Below are positions 5,194-7,229 of a stretch of DNA of 7,229 nt, one piece after another (position 1 is the first letter of the stretch; each line of letters opens with the position of its first letter). The stretch is from a virus. Its lineage: Duplodnaviria > Heunggongvirae > Uroviricota > Caudoviricetes. Below the pieces are notes generated by a model, which was given only the letters and a program-made list of their open reading frames with translations, was not told where the DNA came from and searched no databases. Position numbers and translations under genes: made by a program. Location of the stretch: the IMG/VR virus record IMGVR_UViG_2675903368_000012, one strand, 5' to 3'.

Positions 5194-5400
5194 TCACCCG
5201 ATAAACCAGATAACAAACGCTATCAACATCGCCCCAATAGCTGCCGGGAAAAGTCCTTTGGTATAAGCGGCGATATATTCAATGCTGAGTTCAATAAAGC
5301 GTTCTTTATGTCCCGTTAACTTGCGAAACAAATAGATCTCTATTACGCCTATCTCAATAAAAACAAGGGTCAGAATGGCGCTGATGATATGGCTGGTCAT
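5194..5400 (-). CDS. Small membrane protein, 68 aa, two predicted transmembrane helices
   Basis: ORF directly downstream of cox (cox stop at 5407-5409). Two hydrophobic stretches (ISAILTLVFIEIGVIEIYLF and LFPAAIGAMLIAFVIWFIG). SD is weak. Confidence 0.55.
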   Translation of the reverse strand: MTSHIISAILTLVFIEIGVIEIYLFRKLTGHKERFIELSIEYIAAYTKGLFPAAIGAMLIAFVIWFIG

Positions 5401-5406
5401 TTATGA

Positions 5407-5694
5407 CTAAAGTCCCAGCCACAACAACCATGCGTCGCGGCGTTCTTTCGGTTGCTCAAAAAACGCTTTGCGCATGCCTTCGTTAAATGCTGGCAGATAT
5501 ACCCAGTTTTCTGATGCACGCGTCTTTACTGAACCTGGTTTCACAAAGTCAATTGTTGGTAGCTTTGCTGCGTCAATCATGGTTCTGACTGTGGATTCCT
5601 TGCGGCCGATCATCTTGGCGAATAGTTGATATGGCACCGCTTCAAGTGGATATGGTGCTACCTGAATGAACCCCCCAAGCTCTGATTCGCTCAT
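5407..5694 (-). CDS. cox: Cox/Apl-type excisionase and transcriptional regulator (P2 Cox-like), 95 aa
   Basis: First gene of the leftward early operon, divergent from the repressor gene. HTH-like segment AVPYQLFAKMIGRKESTVRTMIDAAKLP. C-terminal WVYLPAFN...PKERRDAWLLWLGL matches my recollection of P2 Cox. GGGAG SD 9 nt upstream. Confidence 0.8.
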   Translation of the reverse strand: MSESELGGFIQVAPYPLEAVPYQLFAKMIGRKESTVRTMIDAAKLPTIDFVKPGSVKTRASENWVYLPAFNEGMRKAFFEQPKERRDAWLLWLGL

Positions 5695-5823
5695 TGTGGT
5701 AATCTCCCTAATTCGTTCGAATGGCTCAAAATGGCTTATATCGGCTTATTTGAGTGTTTTTATGTTTGTGCCCGATGTGGCATGTTGTGATGGAGGATAT
5801 GCCCGATATGGCATCTTTGTCAA
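5695..5823. promoter_or_regulatory. Repressor/cox divergent switch region with candidate early promoter Pe and operator repeats
   Basis: Direct repeats TGCCCGAT(G/A)TGGCAT at 5769-5783 and 5800-5814. On the minus strand, a perfect TTGACA (5823-5818), an 18 nt spacer and TATCCT (5799-5794). Three 10 bp-phased GGCT units at 5723-5726, 5733-5736 and 5743-5746. Confidence 0.5.
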
Positions 5824-6128
5824 GCATGGGTGAAAAATTTCGCCTGATTCGTGAAGCAGAAGGTATGACCCGCCAGGAGTTTGCGGATTGTGTTGGGCTG
5901 CCTTATGGGACGGTAACTAACTATGAGGTGAGGGGGAAGCAAGTAACAGAGGGTGCCTTACTTAAGGTTACGAAACACCCTAAATTTAAGAAGTATGCTT
6001 ATTGGTTATCAACAGATGAAACGATGCCGGAGGTCGGGCAAATTTCTCCGGCTCTCTCTCTTGATGGTTCCTGCAATTCGGAGGGAGATCGCGTTTCAAC
6101 CGAAACAATCCAAAAATTATCCCGCTGA
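5808..6128 (+). CDS. C: Immunity repressor, P2 C-type, 106 aa
   Basis: Conserved segments GLPYGTVTNYE, KHPKFKKYAYWLSTDE and GQISPALSLDG match my recollection of P2 C (GVPYGTLSYYE ... PQFTKYTLWFMTNQ ... GQIAPALA). GGAGG SD 11 nt upstream of the ATG at 5808. The track ORF's 5754 start is a GTG with no SD. Confidence 0.85.
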   Translation: MASLSSMGEKFRLIREAEGMTRQEFADCVGLPYGTVTNYEVRGKQVTEGALLKVTKHPKFKKYAYWLSTDETMPEVGQISPALSLDGSCNSEGDRVSTETIQKLSR

Positions 6129-6224: not shown

Positions 6225-7229
6225 ATGTCGATTAAGAAGCTCGAAGATGGTCGTTATTTGCTGGACATCAGGCCGAACGGACGCAAGGGAAAGCGCGTGC
6301 GTAAGGTATTTGACAAAAAATCGGTAGCGGTGGCCACTGAACGCTACATCATGGCGAACGCTGAAAAGCGGAAATATATACAGGGCTACCGTGATCGTCG
6401 AACGCTAAATGATTTGCTTGAGTTGTGGTGGATGTATCACGGCCAGCACAGGCGTAAGGCGGAAGAAGACCGAAAACAACTGCGCAACATAATCAATGAG
6501 CTTGGCGCTGATATGCAGGCTGTGGATCTTGATAAGCTGAAAATTATCGCGTGGCGTTCTCAAAAGATAGCTGATGGATTGAAACCGTCATCTGCTAACA
6601 GGTACATGAATCGGTTATCCGGAATGTTTACCGTGCTGAAAAAAATAGGTCTTTGGGATGCAGAACATCCAGTAAGGGGAATTTCTATTCTTTATGTATC
6701 TCCACGAGAAATGGCGTTCCTGTCACAGAAGGAAGTGGCGCTATTGCTCGATACACTGGAGGGCGACTACTGGCGTGTTGCGCTTTTGTGTTTAAGCACA
6801 GGGGCGCGCTGGAGTGAAGCTTGTAAGCTTCGTGGTGAACAGATAGTTCATAACCGTGTAACGTTTCTTGAAACCAAAAATGGCCGGAAGAGAACAGTAC
6901 CAATTTCGCAGGCAGTTTGTGAGGCGATCAAAACCAGAGAAACAGGCGGCTTGTTTGAGGTGAAGTACCGGGAATTCTGCCTGGCGCTGAAAAGAGTTAA
7001 GCCCGATTTACCAAAAGGCCAGGCTGCACATGTGCTGCGGCATACGTTCGCCAGCCATTTTGTGATGAACGGAGGAAACATTATTGCGCTTCAGAAGATT
7101 CTTGGTCACGCAACCATTCAGCAAACAATGGCATATGCGCATTTTGCACCGGATTACCTGCAGGATGCGGTGGCCCTTAATCCGCTGAAAGGTGGCGTAA
7201 GTGTCCACGCAGTGTCCACGGGGGATTAA
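6225..7229 (+). CDS. int: Tyrosine integrase, P2 Int-like, 334 aa
   Basis: N-terminus MSIKKLEDGRYLLDIRPNGRKGKRVRKVFDKK parallels P2 Int. Catalytic-domain motifs LSTGARWSEA, HVLRHTFASH and LGHATIQQTMAYAHF. GGAGGG SD 7 nt upstream of the ATG at 6225; the track ORF starts at an upstream TTG. Confidence 0.9.
   Translation: MSIKKLEDGRYLLDIRPNGRKGKRVRKVFDKKSVAVATERYIMANAEKRKYIQGYRDRRTLNDLLELWWMYHGQHRRKAEEDRKQLRNIINELGADMQAVDLDKLKIIAWRSQKIADGLKPSSANRYMNRLSGMFTVLKKIGLWDAEHPVRGISILYVSPREMAFLSQKEVALLLDTLEGDYWRVALLCLSTGARWSEACKLRGEQIVHNRVTFLETKNGRKRTVPISQAVCEAIKTRETGGLFEVKYREFCLALKRVKPDLPKGQAAHVLRHTFASHFVMNGGNIIALQKILGHATIQQTMAYAHFAPDYLQDAVALNPLKGGVSVHAVSTGD

Follow-up and report, generated by a model that had tools for sequence, protein, structure and literature searches.

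P2 C proteins have been described as binders of non-palindromic direct repeats, and recognition of such sites by a symmetric dimer has been called a puzzle (PMC2995052, PMC4752584). How does a repressor of this kind read its operators, and which protein reads the sites beside them? These questions are raised by the IMG/VR virus record IMGVR_UViG_2675903368_000012, a tailed-phage DNA (Caudoviricetes) of 7,229 nt; the whole of this stretch is called the window here. Between the opposing genes cox and C, at positions 5695-5823, it carries a strong candidate early promoter, two 15-bp repeats around its -10 hexamer and three GGCT units in phase. A preliminary description had taken the region to be a complete P2-style genetic switch. 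In this study, we compared the region with related loci and with characterised switches, and what we say of its function is drawn from sequence comparison and from homology to the P2 and WPhi systems. We conclude that it is most probably a P2-type C/Cox lysis-lysogeny switch of an uncharacterised immunity class, with dyad operators served by C and phased boxes served by Cox. Regulator homology, gene order, a layout like that of the mapped P2 and WPhi operators, and a two-way swap between sites and proteins among relatives all support this reading.

Two P2-type regulators face each other

The gene order is as in P2, with an A-like replication gene and small early genes leftward, cox on the minus strand, an intergenic region, and then C and int on the plus strand. 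The Cox protein (5407..5694, minus strand, 95 aa) matched Pfam Phage_Cox (E=1.3e-22), PHROG 272 (Cox-like excisionase and repressor) and the P2 Cox structure PDB 4LHF (E=3.5e-26), and is 56% identical to P2 Cox and 44% to WPhi Cox. A Cox homologue of a P2-type switch comes first in the opposing early (lytic) operon, and cox indeed lies directly opposite C, with the early genes and the A-like gene beyond it. The C immunity repressor (5808..6128, plus strand) matched the solved P2 C structures PDB 2XCJ/2L49 over residues 6-88 (E=4.4e-16) and PHROG 147. Pfam gave just HTH_3 and HTH_31, both under the cut-off, and no other domain. C is 33% identical to P2 C and 42% to WPhi C. Repressors of P2-type switches are about 100 aa long, with an N-terminal helix-turn-helix (HTH) and no RecA-cleavable domain, and the 106-aa C has this form.

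Two repeats flank the -10 of the predicted early promoter

The preliminary description placed a TTGACA just inside the repressor start on the minus strand and a TATCCT 18 nt further on. Both a consensus scan and a purpose-written position-weight scan recovered this early promoter, Pe, with its -35 at 5823..5818, within C codons 4-6, and its -10 at 5799..5794. TTGACA-18-TATCCT matches 10/12 consensus positions and scores 12.3 bits, while rival candidates reached at most 4.8 bits on the minus strand in 5761-5840 and at most 4.4 bits on the plus strand in 5681-5815 (position-weight scan). The consensus scan also recovered Pe with the same 18-nt spacer in the relative Chuche (11/12) and in the UTI89 prophage (10/12). 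In the window, Chuche and a further relative, Shae_phiSM, the hexamers stand in register, and read TTGACA, TTGACA and TTGATT at -35 and TATCCT, TATACT and TAAACT at -10.

Two 15-bp repeats, one in the promoter spacer and one past the -10, had been noted as well, and repeat search and conservation found them as described, at 5800-5814 and 5769-5783. We designate them, as predicted C operators read on the plus strand, O-prox and O-dist. O-prox (TGCCCGATATGGCAT, 5800..5814, with an extended dyad ATGCC-N6-GGCAT at 5799-5814) fills the -35/-10 spacer at about -13 to -27 of Pe. O-dist (TGCCCGATGTGGCAT, 5769..5783; its dyad core, TGCC-N6-GGCA, spans 5769-5782) begins 11 bp past the -10 and lies at about +4 to +18. 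The repeat consensus is TGCCCGAT(G/A)TGGCAT; the copies are 31 bp apart, start to start, and can be extended to 18 nt at 89% identity. By our own estimate, about 4e-4 chance pairs of 14/15 identity are expected per 130-bp stretch. O-prox includes the ATG at 5808-5810, the C start that homologues support, and the claim that one repeat spans the repressor ATG stands. At the sequence level, two repeated sequences flank the Pe -10, as a P2-type switch requires.

Within the window immunity class, where variation was counted in 10 haplotypes from 21 sequences, 0/30 operator positions vary as against 13/90 other non-coding positions (one-sided Fisher p=0.019). No further repeat copy with up to 3 mismatches was found in the window, and the 37.1-kb phage holds nothing under 3 mismatches elsewhere that would correspond to a distant third operator as in phage 186. 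One extra TGCC-N6-GGCA at 16783 of the phage, inside a coding sequence annotated 'Phage protein' (16763-19570), is probably due to chance.

The predicted operators follow C and the phased boxes follow Cox

As the preliminary description stated, three GGCT units phased at 10 bp lie near cox. They occur at 5723, 5733 and 5743 and belong to a candidate Cox-box array of three 10-bp units, AATGGCTCAA / AATGGCTTAT / ATCGGCTTAT (5720..5749), defined by its exact phasing and by comparison of relatives. A fourth, weak unit, AATTCGTTCG, may be present at 5710-5719. The triplet is unique in the window at up to one mismatch, 5/200 shuffles produced one, and it is the sole exact array of this kind in the whole phage. 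Change within the class is limited, inside the array, to the non-conserved third position of the third unit (5742).

We then paired sites with proteins across relatives. In Chuche, Cox is 98% and C 41% identical to the window proteins; the GGCT array is kept, and the repeat pair in the position of the window's is TTTCTCAACTTAGAAA / TTTCTCATATGAGAAA. Shae_phiSM (Cox 97%, C 48%) likewise keeps the array, with the repeat pair ATCACATGTAAC / GATCACATATGATC in that position. The alignment to these two relatives is conserved from cox through the array to about 5752 and breaks exactly at the start of the repeat. The Serratia locus L064 shows the opposite combination (Cox 44%, C 77%): the TGCC-N6-GGCA pairs are kept (TGCCTCATCGGGCA / TGCCCTATATGGCA), with different 10-bp phased boxes, of a TAGACC type. 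In L075 (P0042) C is 53% identical, with its HTH half swapped and the same C-terminal half, and the locus carries AAnnGCTT-type boxes and the site GTwCCT-AATA-AGGwAC. Because of the two-way swap among Chuche, Shae_phiSM and L064, the predicted operators are assigned to C and the candidate boxes to Cox. That the 15-mers travel with C and the GGCT array with Cox is the strongest evidence to be had short of experiment. It indicates that operators and Cox boxes pass between phages as independent modules, each along with the protein cognate to it.

Loci with graded Cox similarity extend this pairing. The three whose Cox is closest to that of the window (62-74% identical) have boxes similar to the window's, namely AATGGCTAAA AATGGCTTGT ATTGGCTATT in L049, AATTGCTTAA AAAGGCTTAC AACTGCCTAT in L063, and AATCGCTTAA AACGGCTTAT AACGGCTTAT in L070. 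Loci with about 53% identical Cox carry AATTGC-type arrays with the same 10-bp period.

The GGCT array and the rightward promoter

An alternative is that the GGCT array is not a Cox site at all, and is instead part of the rightward promoter Pc or an upstream element of it, belongs to the cox mRNA leader, or is an intrinsically bent stretch of the A-tract kind. In favour of this, Pc has to fall within the array stretch or close to it and no separate Pc was found; the array has three units only, its match at attP is statistically weak, and it would be transcribed within the cox leader of about 93 nt. The box sequence, however, varies with the Cox type (AAnGGCTyA, TAGACC/GACC or AATTGC), while the 10-bp phasing and the position by cox are kept, and the loci with the nearest Cox have similar boxes. 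In the UTI89 prophage, whose 173-aa Cox-family protein is unrelated in sequence to the window Cox, TTTGTT-type repeats are found in the switch and again beside int, in line with the general pattern. The P2 cox-boxes, moreover, are 10-11 bp apart and overlap the -10 and -35 of Pc (PMC3936717), so an array can be a Cox site and overlap a promoter at once. We regard a role other than Cox binding as unlikely. The proposal that the GGCT units are Cox-type boxes is supported insofar as the array follows Cox across relatives, but it is qualified by the number of clear boxes, three here and at least six in P2.

On the plus strand the consensus scan detected no promoter, either in the window or in the three relatives scanned, and the position-weight scan gave for Pc only weak candidates that are not kept from class to class. 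In a control on P2, the position-weight scan ranked the annotated Pc first, at 6.8 bits. The best plus-strand match in the window, a low-confidence candidate with TTGTGG (5694) and TCGAAT (5717) at a spacing of 17 (5694..5722), adjoins the cox start, much as does the annotated Pc of WPhi. The position-weight scan also offered an alternative Pc -10, TATGTT (5761..5766, plus strand), abutting O-dist. Wherever it starts, Pc must by this layout lie left of the C ribosome-binding site at 5792, so that Pe and Pc would converge; this would put Pc within or next to the GGCT array. The switch had been called complete. Both regulators, Pe and the repeats are in place, but neither scan gave a convincing Pc.

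P2 Cox also has a site at attP, which in the annotated P2 record spans 74 bp, from about 60 bp past the int stop to 10 bp inside int. In the P88_4B11 record, 99.7% identical to the window over 1 kb around the switch, a box AACGGCTTA lies 16-24 nt past the int stop. An inverted AGCC and a near-match, GGGC, flank the box, which comes just after two copies of the P2-type Int arm site GTGTCCAC. The pattern AWNGGCTYA, which was derived after the data were seen, has one match in the 75 bp past int, where about 0.009 are expected. The attP-side DNA of Chuche and Shae_phiSM is almost identical and adds no comparative power. These results are suggestive only of a Cox box at the attP side. In the same record (L002), paired P2-type Int arm sites at the int end and beyond it, GTGTCCACGCAGTGTCCAC (27082-27100) and TGTCCACGCAATGACCAC (26805-26822), bracket the presumed attP; both fit the reverse complement of tgTGGaCa, the consensus for P2-type integrases (PMC3448106).

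Each repeat copy is a dyad

The preliminary description contrasted the direct-repeat operators of this locus with lambda-like palindromes. The direct repeat is real, but within each copy the sequence forms a dyad, TGCC-N6-GGCA, in which 5/7 to 6/8 pairs are complementary, and the same holds in nine related loci. The half-sites ascribed to P2 C are non-palindromic (PMC2995052, PMC4752584), and the window repeats are not of that kind. Outer complementary arms of at least 4 bp were found in 19/20 operator copies (ten loci), compared with 18% of random 20-mers; in the same test, the mapped half-sites of P2 (ATCTAAAC) and WPhi (GTCACCAATA) have arms of just 2-3 bp. A reading of the dyads as RNA hairpins or terminators was rejected, as their stems are 4-5 bp only and no terminator-like site lies in 5695-5830.

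The symmetry could be incidental. On the literal P2 model, each repeat is an asymmetric half-site, bound by one monomer specifically while the other rests on non-specific DNA, as has been proposed for P2 C (PMC2995052). Both window copies do have the same oriented centre, CGAT(G/A)T, and the direct repeat does reach 18 nt. Among C homologues of 73-81% identity, however, the dyad arms are constant while the centres (CGATGT, ACATAT, CCATGT, TCATCG, CTATAT) and flanks drift. Two homologues with SYD or SYN in place of PYG at the start of the recognition helix have a distal copy TGTC-N6-GACA, in which the change of TGCC to TGTC is mirrored by that of GGCA to GACA. Other classes have symmetric sites of different sequence, TTTCTC-N4-GAGAAA in Chuche, GATCA-N4-TGATC in Shae_phiSM, TTCACC-N4-GGTGAA in the UTI89 prophage and GTwCCT-N4-AGGwAC in L075, which makes five different arm sequences in different immunity classes, all symmetric. 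The half-sites of P2 and WPhi lack such symmetry, so it is no general by-product of the layout. We consider the literal P2 model quite improbable for this locus. It is scarcely credible that the 15-mers are just a local duplication without function, or that they serve another factor, such as a host protein or Cox, since a chance pair of such quality is hardly expected and the repeats are invariant in the class while their surroundings vary, are replaced along with C and not with Cox, and occupy the places in the promoter at which the P2 and WPhi operators were mapped.

In the P2 C structure, a symmetric dimer is placed to contact two consecutive major grooves, and binding of one dimer per half-site, with cooperativity, has been proposed (PMC2995052). 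The puzzle of symmetric-dimer recognition would not arise for the window class, because one helical turn separates the arms, which is the distance expected from the two recognition helices of the 2XCJ dimer. Dyad repeats with this arm spacing, here and in at least five related immunity classes, fit the expectation from the crystal structure, and the P2 puzzle becomes testable with them. A non-exhaustive literature search returned no paper on palindromic operators in the P2 C family. For the window lineage, and perhaps ancestrally for the whole P2 C family, we see an even chance that the 'half-sites' are two tandem palindromes, each taken by one symmetric C dimer. If so, the non-palindromic 8-mers of P2 would be the better-kept arm of a decayed palindrome, and the natural arm variants (TGCC or TGTC, linked to PYG or SYD/SYN) would offer a tractable system for DNA reading by a symmetric dimer.

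A model of the switch

From the elements described above, their homologies, the conservation of the sites and their pairing with proteins, we infer the following model, which adds binding, stoichiometry, transcription starts and the position of Pc. During lysogeny, C would bind O-prox in the Pe spacer and O-dist just downstream of the Pe start. The operator centres are 31 bp, or about three helical turns, apart, which would put both sites on the same DNA face, with the -10 between them. One symmetric C dimer would occupy each 14-bp dyad, and the two dimers would bind cooperatively. Bracketing the -10, they would exclude RNA polymerase, as for WPhi and P2 (PMC1904268), and shut Pe (predicted start about 5785-5788 on the minus strand, judged from the -10) and thereby cox and the replication genes. 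In the lytic state, the Pe transcript would run through the GGCT array, within a leader of about 93 nt, ahead of cox. Cox, as the first Pe product, would bind the AAnGGCTyA boxes at 5720-5749 as an oligomer and block Pc, so that synthesis of C and integrase would stop. At attP, Cox would in addition serve as the excision factor.

Several observations weigh against this reading. The window has three clear Cox-type boxes where P2 has at least six, and the attP-side box is a single match to a pattern for which about 4.5 matches are expected genome-wide and 5 were observed, 3 of them the switch boxes from which it was drawn. Pc was not found; the highest score of a candidate is 4.4 bits, and the -10 of this candidate does not have the conserved A at its position 2. 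Operator spacing ranges over 31-34 bp among close homologues, and strict helical phasing is therefore not required. Both window copies share the asymmetric centre CGAT(G/A)T, and recognition may have a directional component of the kind put forward for P2. Some prophages of the same class (L008, L015, L048, L013) have a Pe -10 of CATCCT or TGTCCT, or a -35 of TTGATA, at positions equivalent to window 5798, 5799 and 5819, with both operators intact. Such prophages may be crippled, with a promoter-down, non-inducible switch; their substitutions could also mean that the hexamers are under weaker constraint than assumed. Finally, the related loci share ancestry, and counts across loci overstate their independence.

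Comparison with known switches

The closest characterised system is WPhi, with P2 next. The WPhi switch (PMC1904263, PMC1904268; Liu & Haggard-Ljungquist 1999 work) has homologous C and Cox proteins (42% and 44% identical), a C-int operon and convergent promoters, and its TTGACA falls at the C start. The Pe -10 is flanked by operators both in P2, as 8-bp half-sites 22 bp apart, and in WPhi, as 10-bp half-sites 34 bp apart (PMC1904268), and in WPhi this distance is about three turns, as is the 31 bp of the window. In contrast to the 14-bp dyad of the window, the WPhi half-site is not dyad-symmetric, and its Cox boxes have another sequence. The WPhi sites and transcription starts were mapped experimentally, whereas those of the window are predicted.

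P2 shares with the window homologous C (33%) and Cox (56%) proteins and a Pe -35 that overlaps the C start; its 10-11-bp phased Cox sites, both between cox and the operators and beside int at attP, would correspond to the candidate boxes described here. It differs in its non-palindromic half-sites (ATCTAAAC as read on the C-coding strand), in its at least six cox-boxes TTAAA(G/C)NCA, and in a Pc with a perfect TATAAT as its -10, to which no hexamer in the window compares. P2 Hy dis belongs to the same family, with two repeated C sites and a C/Cox pair (PMC1904268), but its half-sites flank the -35 and are 26 bp (2.5 turns) apart. Three related loci whose C begins with MAHM (L063, L065, L068) are nearer to this arrangement. 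Their repeat is CACAT(G/A)TG(A/T)CA, with copies 36 bp apart, and the proximal copy lies over the -35, in C codons 2-5, so that the operator itself encodes the residues AHMS.

Phage 186 is P2-like, with convergent promoters, and its Apl is a Cox-like dual regulator and excision factor acting on direct repeats one turn apart (PMC7498355). Its CI, however, is about twice the size of C, and the phage has cII as an additional gene (PMC3448106); seven dimers of CI assemble into a wheel (PMC2995052). A switch of the 186 CI/Apl/CII type was excluded for the window, as its repressor is 106 aa long and of the P2 C type. The 434 operator has the 4-N6-4 geometry (ACAA-N6-TTGT), the same as the window dyad. 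The 434 and P22 c2 repressors and C.Esp1396I are HTH dimers on palindromic operators and are named structural relatives of P2 C; C.Esp1396I binds as one dimer per palindrome, cooperatively, to directly repeated sites 15 bp apart (PMC2995052). Their likeness to the window C is known for the HTH only, and they differ in gene context, dimerisation domain and promoter layout.

The start codon of C

Database annotations of the C start conflict, giving ATG 5826 (100 aa) in NC_049391 and ATG 5790 (112 aa) in PhiR44_2, and some metagenomic clusters hold a 117-aa C that was not mapped to a start codon. We gathered C homologues from the protein database and by contig look-ups. At 66-86% identity (Salmonella, Serratia, Citrobacter, Lelliottia and Enterobacter) they are almost all 106 aa long and share the N-terminus M[AT]xxSS[MLI]G. 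Codon 5826 is ruled out as the family start because several homologues carry L or I there. ATG 5808, with a GGAG 11-12 nt upstream, is also kept in the heteroimmune Chuche and Shae_phiSM. Given the lengths and N-termini of the homologues and this conservation, the comparison indicates that the true start of C is ATG 5808, for a protein of 106 aa, and not the annotated 5826.

The predicted Shine-Dalgarno sequence of C is GGAGG (5792..5796, plus strand), with GGAG at the same place in the heteroimmune relatives. It overlaps the complement of the Pe -10, AGGATA, and the two elements share base pairs at 5792-5799 on opposite strands. This overlap and the unusually long 11-12-nt gap to the ATG are kept in all heteroimmune relatives examined.

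Source, prevalence and immunity class

Over a 1-kb stretch around the switch, identity is 99.7% to Xuanwuvirus P88_4B11 (Peduoviridae, P2-like phages) and 98.4% to Escherichia phage PhiR44_2. The 136 bp of 5695-5830 were present in 223 of 5426 complete E. coli genomes, with every match chromosomal and 167 of the 223 at 99% identity or above. The map of Pe, the two predicted operators, the candidate Cox boxes and the corrected C start provides a site-level view of a switch found in about 4% of complete E. coli genomes, ST131-type clinical strains included. When the C protein was used to scan one genome per species, a single distant match came back, in Pseudoalteromonas, and nothing for the window class.

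The window C falls outside the three immunity classes with mapped operators (P2, P2 Hy dis and WPhi; PMC1904268). Our comparison with the other published classes covered class IX; this class, that of the UTI89 prophage PhiECO5 (PMC3448106), was rejected as a match, as its C is just 43% identical. The literature search found nothing on the switch of Xuanwuvirus or of P88-type phages. These comparisons indicate that the window represents an uncharacterised but common immunity class, whose predicted operator form is a noteworthy variant of a known switch.

Features of related loci and neighbouring genes

In the UTI89 prophage PhiECO5 (L072, 35361-35882; Xuanwuvirus-like), the same operator and Pe layout lies by C, with the TTCACC-N4-GGTGAA pair 32 bp apart and TTGACA-18-TATCCT. 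The 173-aa protein annotated there as 'Cox family' gave no blastp match to the window Cox.

Two further loci (L066 1-1021 and L068 1-1021; Logan SRR14430917_244 and SRR25193055_432) carry two tandem C-type repressor genes between cox and int. The first encodes a 99-aa C, 52% identical to the window C, with palindromic sites of its own (GGTCTCACTTGTGAGACC). The second encodes a C of the window class, and in front of it stand 10-bp phased TAGACC-type boxes along with a full operator/-10/operator cassette. It seems that the immunity cassette moves as one module, and such prophages may be doubly immune.

Beyond C, the integrase gene (6225..7229, plus strand) runs off the window; it was identified by Pfam Int_N and Phage_integrase and by the integrase in NC_049391. 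From the same-strand order of C (5808-6128) and int (6225 onward), C is presumably the first gene of a C-int operon and the integrase the second gene of this lysogenic operon, the two being co-transcribed. On the other side, cox has a predicted Shine-Dalgarno sequence, GGAGAT (5702..5707, minus strand), 7 nt before its ATG at 5694, which is conserved in all relatives sharing this cox 5' end. Among the open reading frames downstream of cox there was no match to a transcription regulator in PHROGs, and the two tested fell into families of unknown function. The one directly downstream (5194-5400, minus strand) encodes 68 strongly hydrophobic aa, matched PHROG 14475 (function unknown) with no Pfam match, and appears to be an early-operon gene for a small membrane protein. 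It is kept in relatives, also at some loci with a different Cox.

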